In this document: positions 1 to 7,294 of the stretch, in pieces
How positions within the stretch are numbered: the first letter of the stretch is position 1
How the letters are laid out: every line of letters begins with the position of its first letter
DNA from: a virus
Taxonomy: Duplodnaviria > Heunggongvirae > Uroviricota > Caudoviricetes
Virus record (IMG/VR): IMGVR_UViG_3300000059_000050
Coordinates: 1 to 7,294 of that record
DNA length: 7,294 bases
Strand: one strand, 5' to 3'
Notes under the pieces: model-generated
Told to the model about the DNA's origin: nothing
The model's database searches: none
What the model saw: the letters and a program-made list of their open reading frames with translations, nothing else
Made by a program: the position numbers and the translations under genes

Positions 1-157
1 CGGCAGGAACGACTCCGGACGGCAAACCGCGCATGCTTTTTGGTTCCGGCTCCACCAGCACCCTGCCACCATGGAATACCTGCATGGATTCACGACCTAG
101 CTTAACGATAACCAGCCCGAGTTCCGGTACCAGAACAGGTCGAAGTAATACCCGCAC
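1..157 (-). CDS. Hypothetical protein, 5' part only (runs off the window start); candidate start GTG at 155-157
   Basis: Minus frame is open from 157 to position 1 (VRVLLRPVLVPELGLVIVKLGRESMQVFHGGRVLVEPEPKSMRGLPSGVVPA...). GGAGG sits 4 nt upstream of the GTG, inside the last codons of the 159-431 ORF (stop TAA, 1 nt, GTG), a coupling-type junction. No recognisable motif. A plus-strand frame is also open across this region, so strand assignment is uncertain. Confidence 0.25.
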   Translation of the reverse strand, partial: MRVLLRPVLVPELGLVIVKLGRESMQVFHGGRVLVEPEPKSMRGLPSGVVPA

Positions 158-158
158 G

Positions 159-431
159 TTACCTCCAGATCCGCTGCTGGAATGTGCGCGATGGACGTGG
201 AGGGCGTTCGGAATAAGGAAGCCTGACGGAAATTATCCAGTGTCGGAAATCAAGACTGAGATCCTTTCTGACCTCGCATCCGCGCCTGCGGTAACACTGA
301 ATCAGCCATTCGGCCTGTTCTTCAGTGCATGGATCATGCTGGTACCAGTCAGTTTTAAAGACGTGTGAACGCCGCCCGTGCCGGATGGCAAGATCGGTAT
401 CAGAATTGTGAAATTTGGTTTTGTGCGCCAT
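159..431 (-). CDS. Hypothetical 90-aa Arg/Trp/His-rich protein; position would fit a small DNA-binding or recombination-directionality protein, unverified
   Basis: ATG-initiated ORF whose stop is immediately followed by a GGAGG-preceded GTG of the next minus ORF. Composition is basic and Trp-rich. Weak SD, several rare codons and low purine bias at codon position 1 keep confidence low. Confidence 0.3.
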   Translation of the reverse strand: MAHKTKFHNSDTDLAIRHGRRSHVFKTDWYQHDPCTEEQAEWLIQCYRRRGCEVRKDLSLDFRHWIISVRLPYSERPPRPSRTFQQRIWR

Positions 432-502
432 CTGTTTTCTCTGCTGGCGCAGCAGGTGTCAGGTGTTCAGGCTGACGTGCGAATTGTAAACCAGGATGCT
501 CA

Positions 503-533
503 GAAAAAACAAAACCCGCCGAAGCGGGTTTTC
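503..533 (-). terminator. Rho-independent terminator, bidirectional, ending the antitoxin-Doc transcript
   Basis: Perfect hairpin AAAACCCGC-CGAA-GCGGGTTTT at 511-532. On the minus strand it reads CCCGC-UUCG-GCGGG followed by UUUUGUUUUUU, 14 nt past the Doc stop. On the plus strand it is followed by TTTTCATT. Confidence 0.65.
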
Positions 534-546
534 ATTAGAAGCGCCT

Positions 547-1032
547 TTAGTTTTGCTGTTCTATTTTAAGCTTGATAGTTTCATACAAAACAATAGTTGC
601 GCCTGTTTTACATAATTCCCGGCTGTCATACGCGCGAGACCAATAACACAACCAGTTCTCGAGATCTTCTCGAGTATAGGTTTTGCAGGCCAGTCCCTTT
701 GCCATTTCCACGATTTCATCGCCTGGTGCTGTTAACTCATAGCCATTCAACAACAAGAAGACGTAACCAGCCATCATAGCTGTTCGTTTGTTCGCATTAG
801 CAAACGGATGATTCTGAATCAGACTTTCAATCAATACCGATGCCAGTACAAACATGTCATTAGTCTGTTCATACCATCGAACCATGCTGGGACGGGCCTG
901 AGAAGAACTTAAGTTATCTGGACTCAGGACACCAACGGGCTCATCTGGCGTCTGTAATTCAATTAGGGAACGATTGATTTCAACAAGATCATCAACCGTA
1001 AGGTAATGCACTCCTTCAACAATCTCAGCCAT
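547..1032 (-). CDS. Doc-family (death-on-curing, Fic/Doc fold) type II toxin, about 161 aa
   Basis: Translation contains HPFANANKRTA, matching the Doc signature H-x-F-x-(D/N)-A-N-K-R (P1 Doc has HIFNDANKRTA). Start taken at ATG 1030-1032 (MAEIVEGVHYL...); the track ORF begins at a TTG at 1041. Lies 18 nt downstream of a small ORF, the usual antitoxin-toxin layout. Confidence 0.8.
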   Translation of the reverse strand: MAEIVEGVHYLTVDDLVEINRSLIELQTPDEPVGVLSPDNLSSSQARPSMVRWYEQTNDMFVLASVLIESLIQNHPFANANKRTAMMAGYVFLLLNGYELTAPGDEIVEMAKGLACKTYTREDLENWLCYWSRAYDSRELCKTGATIVLYETIKLKIEQQN

Positions 1033-1050
1033 AGAGCACAATACCCATCA

Positions 1051-1230
1051 TTACACTTTTGAAAGTTCTTCCATGGCTTTCTCATAACGAGAAAAACCGA
1101 AATCAAAAGCATTTTTCACTTGTTCACGATGTGCGCAGTTTTCATCAATCGCTGGGCGAGGGACTGCCACAACGCTTTTATCGCGAGGCGGAATACTCAA
1201 CCGCGTGTGTTTTTTGATTGGGCAGCTCAT
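1051..1230 (-). CDS. Putative antitoxin partner of the Doc toxin, about 59 aa, family unassigned
   Basis: Small ORF directly upstream of the Doc gene on the same strand. ATG at 1228-1230 is preceded by AAGGA (MSCPIKKHTRLSIPPRDKSVVAVPRPAIDE...); the track ORF starts at a TTG 48 nt further upstream. I do not recognise it as Phd/YefM-like; the call rests on position and size. Confidence 0.5.
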   Translation of the reverse strand: MSCPIKKHTRLSIPPRDKSVVAVPRPAIDENCAHREQVKNAFDFGFSRYEKAMEELSKV

Positions 1231-1293
1231 ACTAATGAGTCCTTTTGTTTTCCGATTATTGGCAAAGCCATGCACCAAATTTGATACAAAATA

Positions 1294-1341
1294 GATCTGT
1301 TTGAGATCCTTAGGATAGTCTAATGGTAGCTAAAATTACAA
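1294..1341 (-). promoter_or_regulatory. Candidate promoter and operator of the antitoxin-Doc operon
   Basis: On the minus strand: TTGTAA (plus 1336-1341), 18-nt spacer, TATCCT (plus 1312-1317), then inverted repeat GATCT-gtttg-AGATC (1294-1308) near the predicted start site. Lies between the upstream terminator and the antitoxin start. Read by eye only. Confidence 0.25.
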
Positions 1342-1355
1342 CCTCATAATGCGAC

Positions 1356-1376
1356 GAAAAACCCGCCGAAGCGGGT
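1356..1376 (-). terminator. Rho-independent terminator downstream of hok
   Basis: Minus-strand RNA reads AACCCGC-UUCG-GCGGGUU followed by UUUUUCG. The 19-nt core AAAACCCGCCGAAGCGGGTT is identical to the hairpin at 511-531. Confidence 0.55.
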
Positions 1377-1447
1377 TAAGTGCGGGTGCGTTGAGGATGC
1401 CTGACACATCAGAGGTGGCGAGGGATTTCTCCCTCGCCTGGTCACTC

Positions 1448-1603
1448 TTACTTCTCAGATTCGTAGTCTACGAAGACAGCGACCTCCGTCTGGCCGGTTC
1501 GGATTCGTACCTCGCAGAGGTCTTTCCTCGTTACCAGTGCCGTCACTATGACGGTTAAACAGATGACGATCAGGGCGATTAACATCGCCTTTTGCTGCTT
1601 CAT
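1448..1603 (-). CDS. hok: Hok/Gef-family type I membrane toxin, 51 aa
   Basis: MKQQKAMLIALIVICLTVIVTALVTRKDLCEVRIRTGQTEVAVFVDYESEK is near-identical in pattern to chromosomal HokD/RelF-type Hok peptides as I recall them (TM helix, then RKxLCEVRxxxGxxEVAxF). ATG at 1601-1603 is preceded by AAGGAGAAG. The track ORF 1448..1660 is an in-frame extension from an ATG 57 nt upstream. Confidence 0.9.
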   Translation of the reverse strand: MKQQKAMLIALIVICLTVIVTALVTRKDLCEVRIRTGQTEVAVFVDYESEK

Positions 1604-2104
1604 AGCCTGCTTCTCCTTGACCTTTCGGTCCGTAAGAGGCAATCTATATGTGACGAGCATATAGGGGCCTCACTTCGATTTATAGTCGGGTGGGGCTTTT
1701 CTCTATCTGCCTTGCAGTGGCATGCCCGAGACAGATAGCCTCAAGCACCCGCAGCAATTCTAACTATCCAATACATCACTGCCAACACTTTAAACTCTCG
1801 CCCTTTAAAACAAGAACAAAATTCAACCAATCAGCATTGGACGCATACTCATATCCTAGAGAAAACGACTCTTTCTGTACTATCTACATCCATTTGATTT
1901 ATAAGCATTTGCCGCTTGCCATAGCCGCACAATGACAGTTTGCCATTTGATGTCAATAGATAAAAACGATCATTTTCAATGAGTTACATACTTGCAAGGC
2001 GTTGCACATCAGGCCCGATTGCATCAGTATCAAAAGATAACAGATGGTGCATTACTGCCACCTCGCCTTAATGTTCCAGAACTATTCAACTTGAGGAATT
2101 TTCA
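1604..2104. promoter_or_regulatory. AT-rich divergent intergenic region: expected hok leader and antisense control region, plus the promoter of the KilA-N gene
   Basis: About 500 bp with no convincing ORF and visibly lower GC than the flanks. Hok loci are known to carry long structured leaders and a short antisense RNA; here these are inferred from position, not seen. Several -35/-10-like hexamers are present but none could be assigned with confidence. Confidence 0.35.
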
Positions 2105-2878
2105 ATGACATCCTTTCAATTATCTTTGATTTCTCGTGAAATTGACGGCGAAATAATACATTTACGTGCCAAAGATGGTTACATAAACGCCACATCAATG
2201 TGTAGAACTGCGGGCAAACTGCTCTCTGATTACACTAGACTCAAAACCACTCAAGAGTTTTTTGACGAATTATCACGCGATATGGGAATTCCCATATCGG
2301 AGTTAATTCAATCATTTAAAGGTGGAAGACCTGAAAACCAAGGGACGTGGGTGCATCCTGATATCGCTATTAATCTGGCACAGTGGCTATCGCCCAAATT
2401 TGCAGTCCAAGTTTCAAGATGGGTTCGTGAATGGATGTCAGGGGAAAGAACTACAGCAGAAATGCCTGTACATTTAAAACGGTACATGGTTAATCGTGGT
2501 AGAATTCCTCACACGCACTTTTCTATTCTTAATGAACTGACATTCAACTTGGTTGCACCTCTCGAACAAGCAGGGTACACACTCCCAGAAAAAATGGTTC
2601 CTGACATTTCACAAGGAAGAGTATTTTCACAATGGTTAAGAGATAATAGAAACGTAGAACCCAAAACATTCCCTACCTATGACCATGAATATCCCGATGG
2701 TCGCGTATACCCAGCAAGGCTGTACCCAAATGAATATTTAGCAGATTTCAAAGAACATTTTAACAATATTTGGTTGCCACAATATGCCCCGAAATACTTC
2801 GCTGACCGGGACAAAAAGGCTCTCGCCTTGATTGAAAAAATTATGCTACCTAACCTCGATGGCAATGAACAGTTCTAA
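2105..2878 (+). CDS. KilA-N domain protein (APSES-type DNA-binding N-terminal domain) with an unrecognised C-terminal domain, 257 aa
   Basis: N-terminal about 110 aa (INATSMCRTAGK...GTWVHPDIAINLAQWLSPKFAVQVSRWVREW) matches the KilA-N pattern found in P1 KilA and Bro-N proteins. SD GAGGAA lies 6 nt before the ATG. It is the only well-supported plus-strand gene, is AT-rich, and is followed by a strong terminator. Confidence 0.8.
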   Translation: MTSFQLSLISREIDGEIIHLRAKDGYINATSMCRTAGKLLSDYTRLKTTQEFFDELSRDMGIPISELIQSFKGGRPENQGTWVHPDIAINLAQWLSPKFAVQVSRWVREWMSGERTTAEMPVHLKRYMVNRGRIPHTHFSILNELTFNLVAPLEQAGYTLPEKMVPDISQGRVFSQWLRDNRNVEPKTFPTYDHEYPDGRVYPARLYPNEYLADFKEHFNNIWLPQYAPKYFADRDKKALALIEKIMLPNLDGNEQF

Positions 2879-2883
2879 ATGAT

Positions 2884-2911
2884 TAGCCAGCCCCATAGGG
2901 GCTGGCTATTT
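2884..2911 (+). terminator. Rho-independent terminator of the KilA-N gene
   Basis: Perfect 11-bp inverted repeat TAGCCAGCCCC-ata-GGGGCTGGCTA (2884-2908) followed by TTT, 6 nt after the stop codon. Confidence 0.7.
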
Positions 2912-2918
2912 AGTATAG

Positions 2919-3002
2919 TCATCCCCATCGGCAAATCGAATACACAACCAGCGCCACCGCCATCGCAATTCCTGCCGTTGTGAATGCTTCAGGCCAGGTC
3001 AT
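2919..3002 (-). CDS. Possible 27-aa hydrophobic micro-peptide (MTWPEAFTTAGIAMAVALVVYSICRWG)
   Basis: Not in the ORF track (below its size cutoff). Its ATG overlaps the TGA of the upstream 191-aa gene as ATGA. One predicted TM-like segment. Ends 8 nt from the 2884-2908 hairpin. Could be chance. Confidence 0.25.
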   Translation of the reverse strand: MTWPEAFTTAGIAMAVALVVYSICRWG

Positions 3003-3574
3003 CGTAAAATATCCTCCGCGCTTATCAGTCCGTTTCGCTTCAGGTAGACCATCGCCTTCTCCGGTAATTTGCAGTTCGGCTTCGCTTTCCTCAATTGGCT
3101 AGCCAGTTGTTTAATCAGCATTGTTAATTCCCGTACCTGAACGTCCCCTTTGGTATCCTCATTGGTGAGGATACCATCGCCTTTCCCCTGAAGCATGGCG
3201 GCGCAGCAGGCGTTCCATGAGATTTCCTGAAGGGAGCGACGAATCTGTGTGCTGCATATACTCCTCCCTGACTCCTGGCTGTTAAACCATGTTTCAAATT
3301 CCGGCACTACCGTCGCTGGCGGGGCGGTGTAAAGTGGAACAACTCGCCCTCCCCATTGCTTAACACTACTCTCAGCGAACACTAAATGCTCAGCCCGATA
3401 ATACCCGGGGGCATCAATATCTTTTCTTTCGCTATCCCACATGTAAACCACCGGCTCTGCTTCCAGCGATGCCAAAGCAATCCGTGCCACTTCCATTTGT
3501 TCGCTACGAGTAAGCCCGTTTTCAAGCGGATTTTTAATGAACAATTCAATACGTTCTTTGGTGATAGCGTTCAT
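2999..3574 (-). CDS. Prophage early-region protein of unknown function, 191 aa; paralog of the 3578-4000 product
   Basis: AAGGAA lies 6 nt before the ATG. Shares RIALASLEAEPV and V(V/I)PLY-x-x-PPA motifs and a similar C-terminal helix with the adjacent 140-aa protein, with an inserted segment of about 60 aa. Confidence 0.7.
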   Translation of the reverse strand: MNAITKERIELFIKNPLENGLTRSEQMEVARIALASLEAEPVVYMWDSERKDIDAPGYYRAEHLVFAESSVKQWGGRVVPLYTAPPATVVPEFETWFNSQESGRSICSTQIRRSLQEISWNACCAAMLQGKGDGILTNEDTKGDVQVRELTMLIKQLASQLRKAKPNCKLPEKAMVYLKRNGLISAEDILR

Positions 3575-3577
3575 GTG

Positions 3578-4000
3578 TCATTCCTTAACCTGCAACTGCT
3601 TCTTAACCAGTTTACGTAGATGTGCCACAGCCATAGAAAGAGTTTCCACCGCTCGTTTATCCAGCTGTGGGGACAGAGACACCAGTTCGTTTATTGCGAT
3701 CTCAATGCCCTGTGCCTGCACTGTGGGAGCTGGCGGCACACGATACAGCGGAATTACACGACGCGGGTCTGCGTATTTATCTGGAGGACAAGGTAATAAA
3801 TAACCTAAACCAATTTGCTCAACATCTCGCAGTTCCTCGTCATCAGTCCATGCAACTGGTTCTGCTTCCAGCGATGCCAGCGCGATACGAAACACATTGG
3901 CAAGCAGGCTGCTTGAAGATTGGTTATCGTGCGCCGGGTCGCTCAGGAAACCAGTGATGAATGATTTAATTTCCGCGTTTTCTCTGGTAGTAGTGGTCAT
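3578..4000 (-). CDS. Prophage early-region protein of unknown function, 140 aa; paralog of the 2999-3574 product
   Basis: Start ATG overlaps the stop of the upstream gene (ATGA). Motifs RIALASLEAEPVAW and RVIPLYRVPPAPTV. Confidence 0.7.
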   Translation of the reverse strand: MTTTTRENAEIKSFITGFLSDPAHDNQSSSSLLANVFRIALASLEAEPVAWTDDEELRDVEQIGLGYLLPCPPDKYADPRRVIPLYRVPPAPTVQAQGIEIAINELVSLSPQLDKRAVETLSMAVAHLRKLVKKQLQVKE

Positions 4001-4206
4001 TTGTTAATCCTCAAAACTTTATGCCCGGGCGCAAAAGCACGTGTTTTGTCTTTACTTATTCGCCACCCGTCTTTACGGGCCTCTTTTGCACAACCAGACC
4101 ATGACGTACCGATATACTCACCGAAGTCTGGCACTGGATATACACCTTCCGTACACTGGCGGCAGTCACAATAGAGATGCATGGTGTAACTTGCGGCAAT
4201 AGCCAT
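3997..4206 (-). CDS. Small Cys-rich protein (C-x-C-x2-C ... C), putative zinc-binding, 69 aa; tandem paralog copy 1
   Basis: AAGGAGA lies 5 nt before the ATG. Near-identical to the 4817-5032 product (MxIAASYTMHLYCDCRQCT...GEYIGTSW.GCAKEARKDGWRIS.DKTRAFAPGHK). Four conserved Cys. Confidence 0.75.
   Translation of the reverse strand: MAIAASYTMHLYCDCRQCTEGVYPVPDFGEYIGTSWSGCAKEARKDGWRISKDKTRAFAPGHKVLRINK
4011..4206. repeat. Diverged direct repeat, copy 1 (about 196 bp; roughly 85-90% identical to 4837-5032 by eye)
   Basis: Aligned by eye without gaps to 4837-5032. Covers almost the whole Cys-rich gene; similarity continues into the upstream SD region. Confidence 0.8.
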
Positions 4207-4217
4207 ATCAGTCTCCT

Positions 4218-4595
4218 TTAGTGCGCATATAACAGTGATTTTTCCAGCGGTTTTGCTCTCCTGCGCTCTTCCCCAAGCGCATAACGTGCTTCTACCGGGT
4301 CTTTGTCTTCATATTCATAATTGACGCTTTTAACCATCGCTACACAGCACTCATTGCAGCATCTATAGGACATAAGCTCGCCATCAAATTTCCATGTTGT
4401 GCTGCGGTGTATTTCACCCTTTGAGATTTTTCCGGCGCATATGTGGCATGTATATTCACCGCGAGAGGTAACGATTTTATTCGATAACTCAATATCGAAT
4501 GGCGCACCAAAATCACCTTCAAAAAGATAAAAATCCAGAGCGTCTCCTAAATCTTGTTTATTGTATCTCTGCTGCTCTTTTGTGGTAATGGTCAT
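4218..4595 (-). CDS. Cys-cluster protein (CHIC ... CCNECC), putative zinc-ribbon, about 125 aa, unknown function
   Basis: Start taken at ATG 4593-4595 (MTITTKEQQ...), which lies 1 nt after the stop of the upstream membrane-peptide gene. The track's 155-aa version is an N-terminal extension that overlaps that gene in another frame. Confidence 0.65.
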   Translation of the reverse strand: MTITTKEQQRYNKQDLGDALDFYLFEGDFGAPFDIELSNKIVTSRGEYTCHICAGKISKGEIHRSTTWKFDGELMSYRCCNECCVAMVKSVNYEYEDKDPVEARYALGEERRRAKPLEKSLLYAH

Positions 4596-4596
4596 T

Positions 4597-4815
4597 TCAA
4601 CCTTCCTTATACGGATTAATTTTATTGTGCAGTGTGTTGAACGACGCCCATACCACGTCGTTATACAATTCAATAACTGGCTCAATTATTTTCCCGATTG
4701 CCCAGACAAAAATTAGCGGGGATATCGGTATCATCAACACGATAAACAGAATGAGAAACAAAAATTCTGTCGCTCTACTTTTTCGCGGATATTCTTTTCT
4801 GAATAATGTAGGCAC
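4597..4815 (-). CDS. Small membrane protein, 72 aa, one predicted TM helix, GTG start
   Basis: GTG at 4813-4815 is preceded by AGGAGA with a 5-nt spacer; the upstream TGA is 1 nt away. Hydrophobic core FLFLILFIVLMIPISPLIFVWAIG. Confidence 0.6.
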   Translation of the reverse strand: MPTLFRKEYPRKSRATEFLFLILFIVLMIPISPLIFVWAIGKIIEPVIELYNDVVWASFNTLHNKINPYKEG

Positions 4816-4816
4816 A

Positions 4817-5032
4817 TCACTCTCCTTTGTTGCTTCTCAAAATTTTATGCCCTGGCGCAAAAGCACGCGTTTTGTCGACGCTTATTCGCCACCCATCTTT
4901 ACGTGCCTCTTTTGCACAGCCAGCCCATGACGTACCGATATACTCACCAAAATCTGGCGACTGATATTTGCCATCCGTACACTGGCGGCAATCACAATAG
5001 AGATGCATGGTGTAACTTGCGGCAATACTCAT
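4817..5032 (-). CDS. Small Cys-rich protein, putative zinc-binding, 71 aa; tandem paralog copy 2
   Basis: GGAGG lies 4 nt before the ATG, which directly follows the TGA of the 119-aa gene. Same four-Cys pattern as the 3997-4206 product. Confidence 0.75.
   Translation of the reverse strand: MSIAASYTMHLYCDCRQCTDGKYQSPDFGEYIGTSWAGCAKEARKDGWRISVDKTRAFAPGHKILRSNKGE
4837..5032. repeat. Diverged direct repeat, copy 2
   Basis: Partner of 4011-4206, same orientation, 826 bp apart. Confidence 0.8.
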
Positions 5033-5392
5033 TCAGCCTCCTTTGATGCCTGTGTTTACAACCAGGCAGGCCTCCTTGAGTACCCAGTCAATAGCGTCTT
5101 TCCATGCTCCGGTTTCAACTGGCGGATTCTCACGCCGTACCTGTTCATAAAAGCGCACAGCTTTAACCAGTCCTTCTGATGACACCGGGGCTGGCGGGGC
5201 CGTGAATAACGCCTGAATTTCATAGTTCGGTCTGTCGTTACAATCTTCTTTTGTCGGGACATATTTCCAGTCACCAAACCACGACTTACCCTGAGAGTCC
5301 GTAACGCCTTTTTTCACGTAGCGATACCGCCATGCAACTGGTTTTGCCTGCCCTGCCGTTTCATGCCCTTCCTGATAATTAATCTCACTCAT
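5033..5392 (-). CDS. Prophage early-region protein of unknown function, 119 aa
   Basis: Start ATG overlaps the stop of the upstream small ORF (ATGA). N-terminus MSEINYQ is shared with the 5836-6360 product; KPVAW and ALFTAPPAPV motifs are shared with the 140-aa and 191-aa proteins. Confidence 0.7.
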   Translation of the reverse strand: MSEINYQEGHETAGQAKPVAWRYRYVKKGVTDSQGKSWFGDWKYVPTKEDCNDRPNYEIQALFTAPPAPVSSEGLVKAVRFYEQVRRENPPVETGAWKDAIDWVLKEACLVVNTGIKGG

Positions 5393-5565
5393 TCATCGCC
5401 CCACTCATCACAATATGCTTCGACCGGAGTTTTTCCTGCTTCATAATCATCACGCCATGCTTCAGCATCAGCGGCACTTCCACCGCGTAACTCTGCATAA
5501 TCCATTAACAGTTCATGCCATTCTTCAAAACTGGCGTTATATTTAGTTGAACCAAAATCAGCCAT
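5389..5565 (-). CDS. Small acidic protein, 58 aa (MADFGSTKYNASFEEWHELLMDYAELRGGSAADAEAWRDDYEAGKTPVEAYCDEWGDE)
   Basis: Not in the ORF track (below its size cutoff). Its ATG overlaps the end of the 60-aa gene (ATGGCTGA) and its stop overlaps the 119-aa start (ATGA). Counted 16 D/E against 4 K/R. Confidence 0.5.
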   Translation of the reverse strand: MADFGSTKYNASFEEWHELLMDYAELRGGSAADAEAWRDDYEAGKTPVEAYCDEWGDE

Positions 5566-5740
5566 TTTGTTCTTCCTCTTCGTCTTTTATTTCGTGATAT
5601 GAGTAATTGCAGTAGTTAAAGAAAATTTCTTTTGCTTCGTCATGAATTTCATCAGGTGTTGCGTCATCGTCCACTTCGAATACATCCTCAAAATCTCCAC
5701 CAGCTATTCCAGTTTCAATAATTACTTTGAACTTTCGCAT
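5558..5740 (-). CDS. Small very acidic protein, 60 aa
   Basis: ATG-initiated ORF (MRKFKVIIETGIAGGDFEDVFEVDDDATPDEIHDEAKEIFFNYCNYSYHEIKDEEEEQNG). Counted 19 D/E against 5 K/R. Coupled to the downstream 58-aa ORF. SD is weak and sits inside a hairpin. Confidence 0.55.
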   Translation of the reverse strand: MRKFKVIIETGIAGGDFEDVFEVDDDATPDEIHDEAKEIFFNYCNYSYHEIKDEEEEQNG

Positions 5741-5747
5741 TTCATTA

Positions 5748-5796
5748 CCGCCCTTTCAGGCGGCCTCCCGATGTTCTGAGGGTGCAGAAATCCCTC
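5748..5796 (-). other. Two intergenic stem-loops immediately upstream of the 60-aa gene
   Basis: Minus-strand RNA carries GAGGG-auuucugca-CCCUC (plus 5778-5796) and CCGCC-UGAAAG-GGCGG (plus 5748-5763). The second ends 8 nt before the start codon and includes the likely SD. Neither is followed by a U-tract. Confidence 0.4.
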
Positions 5797-5835
5797 CGGT
5801 TAAGGATTAAATTTTATTTACAACACTAAATTTAA

Positions 5836-6360
5836 TTATTCAGGCGCGCGAATCTGTTCCGCACAATGCAACAATGCTTCTGTCACTTCCTTAAGCGTCA
5901 CGGTATCGGCATCATCCAGTCCTGCAACTTTTGCGTGCCTGACAAACGCCGCGCGAAGCTCGTTAAACGCCACCGCCCGTACATCAGCCAGGAAAGCATC
6001 TGTAGCCGGGGTTTGCGGCATACCTCCGTCTGTTGCGCAGATATACGCATCAGATAGTTCATCCTGCTCGCCATCAAACACGTAGCAACTCTGTGCGATA
6101 AATTTATTCAGCCCCGCATTCTCCGCCGCAAGCGCCATGCGTTCTTTCTCAAGTCGGAAAATTTCAGTCACGTATTTGGCGTTTTCACCACCCTTGATTA
6201 ACTCGTTAATTCGTTTGCTTTTAATTTCCAGTTCATCCAGCAGTTCCAGCACAACCTGAGGTGTGGCTTTCATACGAAATGCCAGCAATTTTTGTGGTGT
6301 GGCTGCTATTTTTATTGCTTCTGCCGCCCCACGCAGAGCCTGATAGTTAATCTCGCTCAC
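5836..6360 (-). CDS. Ea22-like lambdoid early protein (tentative family), about 174 aa, GTG start
   Basis: Perfect AGGAGG (plus 6367-6372) lies 6 nt before the GTG at 6358-6360; the track's TTG start at 6390 is an upstream extension. N-terminus [14 protein letters not shown]...VVLELLDE... resembles Ea22-like proteins as I recall them (not verified). Central region looks coiled-coil-like. Overlaps the upstream gene by 14 nt. Confidence 0.7.
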
Positions 6361-7090
6361 TGGTTGCCTCCTGGCAAAGCTGGGCGACAATATCGCGATA
6401 TTTATTCAGCTCCCGCAGCGCGGCACAGACTCGCTCCCATTTCCGGATATCACTTTTCGCCCGACGCAGTTCGCGGTTTGCCTGTCGCAGCGATGGCAGA
6501 ACCAGATTATCCACTCGCTTCTCAAGCGGCTGCACAATGTCCGCCACAGTTTCTGTTTTAATATCTTCCTGTGTTGCAGCTTCCTGTACTGGTAACGCAA
6601 CACATGCAGGCTGAGGAAAGGCTTTACCATCAGTTTCCGCTACCGATGCCGCTTTCGGCTCTGCTGGTAAATTACCGCCCGGCATGCAGTAACGAAATTT
6701 ACCGTTCTGATTAACACGAATCAGACGACCTTTGCTGATTGCCATTGCCAGCGTTGAAGCCACTTTGCGGGATGCTGTACCGAACAGCGTAGCCAGTTCA
6801 TCCGCCGTTTGTGGTCCGCGTTGTTCAATCGTCGCGGTTAAATCGCACTCTGAGATTTTCGCTACTGTCGCCGTGGTGGTTTCTTCCGGCTGTTCTTCTG
6901 GCGCTGGCTGTTCCTGCTGAACGTTGTTATCAGCCACACGCCAGGTGTATACGCTTTTATCAACGAATCCAGCCTTTTTCAGTTCCCACAGCTCGTTCAG
7001 TACTTCTTCACGACTGATATCAAGTCGCGCAGCCAGCTCTACCGACGTGGCTTTTCCCATCGCTTTCAGTGCGTCAAAAACAGTCTCCAT
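6347..7090 (-). CDS. Prophage protein with two putative winged-helix-like segments, 247 aa, unknown function
   Basis: GGGAGG lies 6 nt before the ATG. Two similar helix-turn-helix-like stretches (around residues 1-50 and 90-140) are separated by an acidic, Pro/Gln-rich linker. The domain call is by eye only. Confidence 0.7.
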
Positions 7091-7122
7091 AAATTTCCTC
7101 CCGGTAAAAATTACTTCTCAAC

Positions 7123-7294
7123 TCAAACAAACCCAGCCGCTTTCCGGCGTTCATATTCCTGTTTCAGTAACTCAATTGGCGTTGGCCCCGACGGGCGTTT
7201 GGGTGCCGCCAGTTGTCGCCGGACTGGCGGAACGCCCAGGCCGTTACTAACATGCTTTGCCCATTTCGTCAGCTGCCGTTCTGCCAGCCGTTTT
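7123..7294 (-). CDS. Hypothetical protein, C-terminal 56 codons (5' end lies beyond the window)
   Basis: Minus frame is open from the window edge to a TGA at 7123-7125 (...KRLAERQLTKWAKHVSNGLGVPPVRRQLAAPKRPSGPTPIELLKQEYERRKAAGFV). The next gene starts 32 nt downstream with its own SD. Confidence 0.45.
   Translation of the reverse strand, partial: KRLAERQLTKWAKHVSNGLGVPPVRRQLAAPKRPSGPTPIELLKQEYERRKAAGFV

Follow-up and report, generated by a model that had tools for sequence, protein, structure and literature searches.

The DNA considered in this study is a stretch of 7,294 nucleotides (nt), positions 1 to 7,294 of the IMG/VR virus record IMGVR_UViG_3300000059_000050, and I will refer to the whole of it as the window. 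It lies in an E. coli-type prophage, lambdoid and of the Rac/Stx (Shiga toxin phage) type. Its minus strand carries three open reading frames (ORFs) of 191, 140 and 119 amino acids (aa), which by their sequences are identified as putative EaA-like accessory genes of that prophage, and a fourth, of 174 aa, whose product is Ead/Ea22-like (PF13935, E = 1.4e-9, 39 bits against a gathering cut-off of 27). A preliminary description of the sequence had drawn attention to short motifs shared by these four ORFs, all of which are indeed present on the minus strand where it had placed them, and had taken the motifs as signs of module shuffling by recombination. That shuffling is directly demonstrated by swapped cassettes, by breaks of homology at the motifs and by explicit chimeras.

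The motifs are found as reported, with the exception of PPAP in the 191-aa protein, where the sequence reads VVPLYTAPPAT and has PPAT instead. The peptide RIALASLEAEPV is identical at 12 of 12 positions between the 191-aa protein (aa 31-42) and the 140-aa protein (aa 38-49), and PVAW is common to the 140-aa protein (aa 48-51) and the 119-aa protein (aa 18-21). The second motif takes the form VIPLYRVPPAP in the 140-aa protein and QALFTAPPAP in the 119-aa protein. As had been noted, the 119-aa and Ea22-like proteins share their beginnings: MSEINYQ is the same in 7 of 7 residues, the DNA strings quoted for it are correct and agree at 18 of 21 positions, and the similarity of the DNA around it reaches 48 nt at 71% (repeat D2, 5353-5400 against 6321-6368). 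The other motifs also recur as direct repeats in the DNA, D4 over RIALASLEAEP, D11 over PVAW, and D10 over APPA (21 nt at 86%).

Alignment bears out the relationship of the proteins. BLASTP aligns the first 90 residues of the 191-aa and 140-aa proteins (E = 3e-12, 38% over 90 aa), and the pairwise scores of the 119-aa protein against the other two are marginal (E = 0.013 and 0.06). At the level of profiles all three match PHROG 660, with E-values of 2.6e-42 (191 aa, profile positions 3-193), 4.1e-20 (140 aa, 3-120) and 9.9e-43 (119 aa, 34-143). A hidden Markov model (HMM) of the module from which every core of the 119-aa type had been left out was run on the window, translated in six frames into 150 segments; it picks out the 119-aa protein at E = 3e-6, with 0.24 for the runner-up. 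When the profile includes the proteins themselves, the three are found at E = 1e-19 to 1e-34. A first motif resembling IALASLEAEPVxW (J1), followed within about 25 to 60 aa by a second, PLYxAPPxP (J2), occurs in all three proteins of the window, with J1 reduced to KPVAW in the 119-aa protein, and in EaA of phage P22.

These comparisons give a common order of parts, in which a gene start (J0) is followed by a helical leader, J1, a core, J2 and a helical tail. J0 consists of the Shine-Dalgarno sequence and the first seven codons, encoding either MTTITKE or the Ead/Ea22-type MSEINYQ, and J1 has the form (R)IALASLEAEPVAW. The core, predicted to be rich in beta-strands, extends over 25-60 aa, J2 is a proline-rich linker, PLYxAPPAP(VVPE), and the tail ends WxxAC...KGE-stop and contains the ribosome-binding site of the next gene. 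The preliminary description had spoken of short shared modules. The sharing is real, but the motifs are joints between modules, not the modules themselves.

The examination of homologous prophages that it had recommended shows breaks in both protein and DNA homology piling up at the motifs. The ends of BLASTP alignments accumulate at aa 28, 83 and 92 of the 191-aa protein, at aa 38, 51, 92-96 and 103 of the 140-aa protein, and at aa 15 of the 119-aa protein, where 70 alignments to homologues begin; aa 92 of the 191-aa protein lies at J2. At the DNA level, ends of high-scoring segment pairs (HSPs) cluster at 3435-3494 around J1 of the 191-aa gene. Of the 1,289 E. coli records (complete genomes) with matches in the 1,002-nt stretch 2999-4000, coverage reaches 80% or more in only 2. 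In an evenly spaced sample of the E. coli matches, most cover 3447-3601 alone, which comprises the leader of the 191-aa gene and the 27 nt before it, and end at the EPV codons of J1 (approximately 3447-3450). Others stop at the W codon of PVAW in the 140-aa gene (3848), span J1, core and J2 alone, or cover just 38 nt of the 140-aa J1 (3852-3889) at 100%. The C-terminal extension of the 191-aa gene behaves as a further module: some E. coli matches cover only query positions 1-142, there are partial matches to PHROG 8171/30109/924, and the extension is also found on 171-aa proteins of the 119 type (P0027, P0088). In relatives, the tail motif that precedes it is followed by KGE-stop, and two of them (P0152, P0215) end there.

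Other genomes contain genes that combine parts of different genes of the window. The viral contig L003 joins nt 1-146 of the 140-aa gene (94.5%) to nt 101-576 of the 191-aa gene (97.1%), the two parental tracts overlapping by 25 nt inside J1. The same two parents meet in an NCBI genome assembly (L113), nt 1-275 of the 140-aa gene with nt 229-576 of the 191-aa gene, with the crossover in J2. In L115, nt 1-123 of the 191-aa gene are joined at J1 to nt 58-355 of the 119-aa gene, and L114 combines nt 1-41 of the Ea22-like gene (90%), the 119-aa gene and the C-terminal module of the 191-aa gene. These genes show in-frame exchange of cassettes between phages or prophages, with crossovers inside the joints. 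I consider this account of the family likely, a confidence that is placed in the evolutionary mechanism, exchange of cassettes at joints, and not in any guess at what the proteins do.

Table 1. Features of the window. Genes are given from start to stop, motifs and modules from lower to higher position; D numbers denote direct repeats.
Feature	Position	Strand	Remarks
191-aa EaA-like gene	3574-2999	minus	MNAITKE start, two-helix leader, J1, core, J2, helical tail with WNACCAAML, C-terminal extension (putative parts)
J1 of 191-aa gene (RIALASLEAEPV)	3449-3484	minus	D4, 35 nt at 83% with 3855-3889
J2 of 191-aa gene (PLYTAPPA)	3314-3337	minus	predicted proline-rich linker after last core strand; D10 with 5184-5204; crossover of L113
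Tail motif of 191-aa gene (WNACCAAMLQG), J3-like	3185-3217	minus	HSP ends at 3180-3224
C-terminal extension module of 191-aa gene (...ELTMLIKQL...LISAEDILR)	2999-3140	minus	
140-aa EaA-like gene	4000-3578	minus	MTTTTRE start, leader, J1, core, J2, helical tail ending VKE-stop (putative parts)
J1 of 140-aa gene (RIALASLEAEPVAW)	3848-3889	minus	D4, D11; crossover of L003
J2 of 140-aa gene (PLYRVPPAP)	3725-3751	minus	alignment ends at aa 92-96; crossover of L113/P0143 chimera
119-aa EaA-like gene	5392-5033	minus	MSEINYQ start, degenerate J1 KPVAW, beta-sheet core, J2, helical-hairpin tail ending IKGG-stop (putative parts)
KPVAW, right half of J1, 119-aa gene	5330-5344	minus	D11, 18 nt at 94% with 3848-3865
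J2 of 119-aa gene (ALFTAPPAP)	5186-5212	minus	D10
Gene-start joint of 119-aa gene (ATG AGT GAG ATT AAT TAT CAG ...)	5353-5400	minus	D2 with 6321-6368
TTITKE-type start (MTITTKE) of zinc-ribbon-like gene	4575-4597	minus	on an unrelated gene; D3, 22 nt
DUF1627 gene	7090-6347	minus	
Ead/Ea22-like gene, 174 aa	6360-5836	minus	GTG start at 6360, overlapping DUF1627 gene; PF13935 match
DUF7167 gene	5740-5558	minus	
58-aa ORF	5565-5389	minus	
71-aa ORF	5032-4817	minus	PHROG 926
DUF4014 gene	4815-4597	minus	
Zinc-ribbon-like ORF	4595-4218	minus	
69-aa ORF	4206-3997	minus	PHROG 926

To describe how the cassettes are combined, I will name each leader, core and tail after the gene of the window in which it is found. 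The homologue sets comprise 955 clusters at 90% identity for the 119-aa protein and 4,497 for the 191-aa protein, the names shown being almost all E. coli. Among 182 unique proteins in which J1 is followed by J2, there are 23 types of leader, 25 of core and 31 of tail in 68 combinations, counts that are illustrative rather than unbiased, because the relatives were sampled with the window proteins or the J1 motif as bait. In these proteins 14 leader types are seen before the 119-type core, 12 core types after the 191-type leader, and 7 leaders and 10 tails around the 191-type core. The tails of the 191-type core include DUF551, a dATP/dGTP pyrophosphohydrolase-type domain and others, and in 12 clusters this core stands behind the 140-type leader. 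The 119-type core (PVAW-RYRYVKKG...IQALF), preceded in the window by MSEINYQEGHETAGQAK, is found elsewhere behind the 191-aa leader (P0085, P0091), the 140-aa leader (P0052, P0087), at least 10 further helical leaders, the N-terminal domains of Ead/Ea22 proteins (P0113 and P0114, the latter matching PF13935), and, in P0088, a 16-residue Ea22-type start (MSEVNYQALREAVEQAI-PVAW). The 140-aa leader is of a different type from that of EaA and is found in relatives on the same cores. Some proteins have two or three cores in tandem, joined as ...PLYxAPPAPVVPxAEPVAW... (P0241, P0242).

Among 1.84 billion representative proteins, 770 clusters at 50% identity match a profile of the three modules (E<=0.001), 140 of them at E<=1e-10. 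One hit of this search, P0254 (2879 aa, 18 stretches), was rejected as a repeat-protein false positive. Among 149 diverse representatives that bear the module, at most 31 have any Pfam match (E<=0.001): DUF551 in 19, Ead_Ea22 in 7, pyrophosphohydrolase in 2, Lar in 2 and DUF4752 in 1. The start is MTTITKE-like in 80 of the 149 and MSEINYQ-like in 10. The window has three family members in its operon, and two or three are present in 25 of 60 loci. The peptide IALASLEAEP, sought as a degenerate DNA pattern in species-representative genomes, occurs in Escherichia, Shigella, Enterobacter, Trabulsiella, Citrobacter, Pseudocitrobacter, Huaxiibacter, Pseudescherichia and Edwardsiella; instances in a Bacillus and in two contigs of Segatella metagenome-assembled genomes are taken as contamination or chance. 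Phage records bearing the 191-type leader are mostly from Salmonella and Escherichia.

Mosaicism had been described earlier as lying within one operon. The shuffling stands, but it is not confined to the operon: it is population-wide among lambdoid phages and prophages, in the leftward (PL) 'ea' and the rightward (PR) 'nin-like' regions. The chimera of 191-type leader and 119-type core in L115 (3001-3429) lies in a P22-like leftward 'ea' region, beside xis/int and after two Ead_Ea22 genes, a position which indicates that the same cassettes circulate between the PL and PR operons of different types of lambdoid phage.

The starts of the genes are shared as well. MSEINYQ is the normal start of Ead/Ea22 proteins, where it is followed by ...ALRxAAE, and in related loci it has ten different continuations. 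The 119-aa gene has in common with the Ea22-like gene the start region and about 16 codons, nothing further. The gene of P0088 is an intermediate, 37 of its first 41 nt (90%) matching the Ea22-like gene and the remainder being 88% identical to the 119-aa gene. The fusion of Ead/Ea22-type leaders to the 119-type core in P0088, P0113 and P0114 explains the sharing of SEINYQ, in agreement with the earlier reading of it as a product of mosaicism. Commoner still is the start MTTITKE (ATG ACC ACT ATT ACC AAA GAA), with 29 different continuations, including some in Enterobacter and Edwardsiella; in the window a start of this type is found on the 191-aa and 140-aa genes and on the unrelated zinc-ribbon gene (D3). 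Likewise, EaF and EaD of P22 (L111, 1357-1716 and 1713-2306), neighbours that are otherwise different, both start MSNIDK.

The preliminary description knew of no function for the PPAP family. Sequence comparison points to P22 EaA as its named prototype, but the function of the prototype is likewise unassigned and is listed as unknown in the genome paper that tabulates EaA (PMC4837284). EaA and the genes of the window are alike in being non-essential early genes with no assigned function, and they agree in start type, leader, J1 and J2: EaA starts MTTITKERIELFVKSPLENGLTRGEQMELARIALASLDAETV..., has IPLYAAPPVP after a short core, and over aa 1-45 is 77.8% identical to the leader of the 191-aa protein (tblastn). 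The 140-aa protein has an EaA-type start, whereas that of the 119-aa protein is of the Ead/Ea22 type, although its relatives P0085 and P0091 do carry EaA-type leaders. At 317 aa (an ORF of 318 codons including the stop), EaA is longer than the window proteins, which have other cores and tails. It continues into a segment, absent from the window proteins, which recurs in a relative that has a match to the dATP/dGTP pyrophosphohydrolase profile, and at its end stand the flank motifs of DUF551 (GGWISCSERMP...SHWMQLPDPP), as judged by motifs rather than by Pfam. Gene position also differs: P22 eaA lies in the leftward operon by xis/int, the genes of the window in a rightward operon after the replication genes.

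P22 EaA is often annotated as 'EaA protein' or 'DUF551 domain-containing protein'. DUF551 is, however, a frequent partner of the family and not a defining part of it (19 of the 149 diverse module-bearing proteins), and the 191-, 140- and 119-aa proteins give no match to DUF551 (PF04448) at E<=0.1. The idea that the core, PVAW...PLYxxPP, is a diverged DUF551 (W...WMPLPEPP) was rejected, hhalign giving a probability of 0.2% and one aligned column. The DUF551 domains fused to EaA-like proteins (P0157-P0236 and others) repeat the pattern of the cores, with near-invariant flanks (TPDGWISCSERMP ... THWMPLPEPP) and hypervariable interiors. In L112 (NZ_CP182374.1, 3501-4076), RefSeq annotates as two pieces what is an intact orthologue of the 191-aa gene, one a 'hypothetical protein' and the other a pseudogene, 'DUF551 domain-containing protein, incomplete', and the orthologue of the 140-aa gene is likewise called partial. 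The false call appears to arise because these genes share leaders with DUF551 proteins.

The 191-, 140- and 119-aa proteins give no match to PF13935 at E<=0.1 and lack the coiled coil of Ea22, but the MSEINYQ start is reused by the 119-aa gene, and in relatives N-terminal domains of Ead/Ea22 lead the 119-type core. The ea22 genes are themselves mosaic, with a common N-terminal segment and coiled coil followed by unrelated C-terminal domains, one of them DUF551 (PMC10834534). Ea22 of lambda and of Stx phages favours lysogeny (PMC7093339), and nothing comparable is known for EaA-like proteins. In lambdoid phages more generally, exchanged blocks are flanked by short residual homology (Martinsohn et al. 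2008, PMC2327257; De Paepe et al. 2014, PMC3945230). The mosaics in those two studies are gene-scale, whereas the joints considered here are intragenic, in frame, at predicted domain boundaries and in dozens of contexts.

A further likeness is with polymorphic toxin families, in which a short junction motif (VENN of CdiA, PxxxxDPxGL of Rhs) borders modules swapped by recombination. A short conserved motif of peptide and DNA at the border of modules is common to both, an analogy of evolution and not of membership, since the EaA-like family has no toxin/immunity logic, no secretion apparatus and no sequence relationship to the toxins.

The genes are coding and constrained, as shown by low ratios of nonsynonymous to synonymous substitution (dN/dS). 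For orthologues of the 119-aa gene (nine alleles), dN/dS is 0.18 overall, 0.13 in the core and 0.23 in the tail, and for the 191-type core it is 0.29, at low divergence. The AlphaFold2 (AF2) models have limited quality. That of the 119-aa protein places a beta-sheet at aa 18-63 (predicted local distance difference test, pLDDT, about 85), with PVAW in the first strand and ALF in the last, followed by a helical hairpin; the SEINYQ stretch is modelled as disordered. In the model of the 191-aa protein, two leader helices end at J1, strands are predicted at 43-47 and 77-81, and a low-confidence segment follows J2. As I read these models, J1 may correspond to the end of a helix plus the first strand of the core, and J2 to the last strand plus a proline-rich linker.

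Searches of Pfam, NCBIfam and PADLOC found no match for the 191-, 140- and 119-aa proteins, and PADLOC none for the Ea22-like protein, the neighbouring plus-strand BstA-like gene alone matching. Two family profiles searched against sequences in the PDB gave nothing meaningful, and there was no informative fold match. An acidic character like that of DNA mimics was considered but is not supported (isoelectric points of 6.6, 5.2 and 6.6). In the literature searched there was nothing on the function of EaA or on the joints. With low confidence, one might picture non-essential early proteins that have a helical leader in common and use it to present a small variable domain, or an enzyme, to a target of host or phage.

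What keeps the joints conserved was assessed for J1, in 44 contexts for conservation by codon position and in 53 for pairwise identity of DNA. Codon positions 1 and 2 are 95-99% conserved, position 3 only 75% (frequency of the major allele), and the joints are thus under selection at the level of protein. Where two genes have nothing in common on either side of J1 (flanks of about 30% identity), the DNA of J1 is 85% identical, and identity at third positions is 59-70%, as compared to about 35% expected, a value estimated from E. coli codon usage rather than computed. Exact shared runs in such pairs are at least 17 nt long in 38% and at least 23 nt in 19%. The minimal segment for efficient pairing is 23-27 bp for Red-beta, a need shared by Rad52-like recombinases, and 31-34 bp for RecA (PMC3945230), so that J1 joints give runs of the former length in part of the pairs. 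Genes for RecE-type exonucleases are present in two of the four host prophages examined (L084, L085).

As to mechanism, the likeliest is that homologous or homeologous recombination acts in frame at joints which selection on the protein preserves. Selection would act on the boundary elements, namely the leader helix where it ends, the core strands that come first and last, and the linker. The joints, presumably the borders of domains, would thereby offer approximately 17-38 nt of near-identical DNA to relaxed homologous recombination, of the RecET/Red type or by RecA, and exchange at them would automatically be in frame and between folding units. The catalysts would be Rad52-like or RecA recombination functions.

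Several points weigh against this account. The third positions of J1 are far from invariant, from which it follows that conservation is primarily of the protein, and in most J1 pairs the exact identity is too little for homologous exchange to be efficient; illegitimate recombination, filtered by selection, could account for some junctions. The AF2 model of the 191-aa protein is of low confidence (pLDDT 52), and any pairing of the first and last strands of the core is conjectural. The sampling by bait mentioned above also bears on how far the combinations may be generalised.

The selection on protein sequence leads to the strongest of the other explanations, in which the joints are functional peptide signals for docking, oligomerisation or processing, the family is defined by whatever binds leader, J1 or J2, and recombination is incidental. 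I regard this as a real though lesser possibility. It accords with the difference between codon positions in J1, with the occurrence of the same start, leader and J1 before DUF551 (19/149), dATP/dGTP pyrophosphohydrolase (2), Lar (2) and Ead_Ea22 (7), and with the tandem cores of P0241 and P0242, in which the joint lies within one polypeptide. The explanation names no known partner, cleavage site or signal, however, and the 119-aa protein lacks the left half of J1 and is yet under purifying selection. It is also compatible with the evidence for recombination, and both may hold together.

Ordinary paralogy would have the genes arise by duplication within the operon and diverge rapidly, the motifs being simply the most constrained residues of one fold and recombination having no special part in it. 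The 191-aa and 140-aa proteins, adjacent and alignable over 90 aa, are what it would predict, as are the protein-level signature of J1, the frequency of operons with two or three members, and, in the diverse sample, the graded similarity of core types (a W-D-x-E-x-R/K-D-V/I pattern and an RYR series). I nonetheless find it distinctly unlikely, because near-identical cores stand behind as many as 14 unrelated leaders, DNA that is 88-97% identical ceases to be alignable exactly at the joints, two adjacent genes of the window form chimeras in other genomes, the operon differs from its nearest relatives by whole cassettes, and leader, core and tail are incongruent across the family.

Cassette exchange by general recombination may also be set against programmed diversification, by a diversity-generating retroelement, a shufflon-type invertase or a site-specific recombinase dedicated to the joints. 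Short conserved sequences flanking hypervariable segments do resemble cassette systems superficially. But there is no reverse transcriptase, invertase or integrase among the fifteen ORFs of the window scanned against Pfam, and no meaningful inverted repeat in 2900-6450 save one weak repeat of 18 nt. The variation seen lies between one genome and another rather than between copies of one template and variable repeat, and the joints are direct repeats in different genes, so this explanation is largely refuted and highly improbable. Finally, there is virtually no likelihood that the motifs match by chance or through low complexity, an idea to which the marginal pairwise scores of the 119-aa protein and the proline- and alanine-richness of J2 lend some colour but which is refuted by the significant and independent matches of all three proteins to PHROG 660, the HMM built without 119-type cores, hundreds of database relatives with a canonical LEAEPVAW before the 119-type core, and the recurrence of the same motifs as direct repeats in the DNA.

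The genes lie in a minus-strand block of tightly packed, often overlapping, co-directional and translationally coupled genes (Table 1). Promoter-like and terminator-like sites in 2800-7294 show no excess over shuffled sequence, and none splits the block. The GTG start of the Ea22-like gene agrees with its relatives in RefSeq. In annotated relatives and in contigs encoding the identical 191-aa protein, the upstream neighbours of the block are replication genes (O/P-like, YdaU/YdaV), and the downstream neighbours are hok, DUF1367/YbcO or DUF968/RusA, and a Q-like antiterminator. Because of these neighbours, the block is placed in the rightward early operon, as its 'nin-like' part between the replication genes and the Q antiterminator region, and not in the b/ea region of lambda. 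In no complete E. coli genome does a single place account for more than 45% of the window, and the identical 191-aa protein is encoded on many contigs, one of them a 5.07-Mb chromosome.

The closest relative, L083 (99%), becomes the window by the addition of one unit between two copies of PHROG 926. These copies, the 69-aa and 71-aa genes, are 87% identical in both protein and DNA; they are cysteine-rich and form the arms of a direct repeat of 210 nt. L083 has a single copy and lacks the unit of about 826 nt that lies between the copies in the window, indicating insertion or deletion by recombination between the PHROG 926 copies.

Several genes have similar ends: IKGG-stop (5033-5047), NKGE-stop (4817-4831), VKE-stop (3578-3592) and, in P22 EaD (L111), KVKGE-stop. 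The codons AAA GGA G.. at such ends constitute AAGGAG, a ribosome-binding site for the next, coupled gene. This overlap probably explains the C-terminal '+GE motif' of Ea22, whose significance was called unknown (PMC7093339).

Just beyond the 191-aa gene is a 27-aa hydrophobic ORF (2919-3002, minus strand; MTWPEAFTTAGIAMAVALVVYSICRWG) that overlaps the stop codon of the gene at ATGA and may encode a small membrane peptide. Homology to the DNA of relatives ends at 2910-2924, near the end of this ORF, which therefore seems to be carried along with the C-terminal module of that gene. Convergent to the block, on the plus strand, is a gene of 257 aa (2105-2878) with a KilA-N domain (PF04383, E = 4e-27) and a C-terminal part that matches BstA (PADLOC PDLC02356, E = 6e-21); in L083 the annotation of the same protein includes BstA_C. 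By these matches, the gene is predicted to be a BstA-like prophage gene for defence by abortive infection. It is followed by a strong terminator-like hairpin (2884-2908). The minus-strand ORFs at 1448-1660, 547-1041 and 1051-1278 include a Hok/Gef toxin gene (PF01848) and a Doc/Fic toxin gene (PF02661), and a 75-aa ORF upstream of the Doc gene could encode a Phd-like antitoxin. Toxin-antitoxin and defence genes are abundant in the stretch downstream of the ea-like block.

The shuffling of EaA-like genes is a well-resolved new example and not a new kind of system, since the mosaicism of lambdoid phages is textbook knowledge, that of ea22 has been published and the P22 prototype has a name. Neither the explicit architecture of joints (gene start, J1, J2 and tail end) nor adjacent genes of one genome serving as the parents of chimeras elsewhere was found in the literature searched. 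The family is large and widespread in prophages of Enterobacteriaceae, and there is no Pfam model for the architecture of its core.

A bolder idea, which I think unlikely, is that the joints are not just passive borders of domains but constitute a selected scheme of in-frame exchange by which temperate phages of enterobacteria quickly re-assort a large repertoire of small binding domains on common leaders, each core type targeting a different factor of the host or of a rival phage; a defence system or a regulator of the choice between lysis and lysogeny could be such a target. If true, phages would have here, in a family of at least 770 clusters at 50% identity, their own counterpart to the diversification of polymorphic toxins or immune receptors. 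Aside from this idea, the genes provide an unusually clean natural case of intragenic, in-frame mosaicism, with crossovers placed within approximately 25-35 nt inside a conserved joint. They bear on the old question of whether phage mosaics are made by homologous or by illegitimate recombination, and they offer a small system in which it can be tested by experiment.

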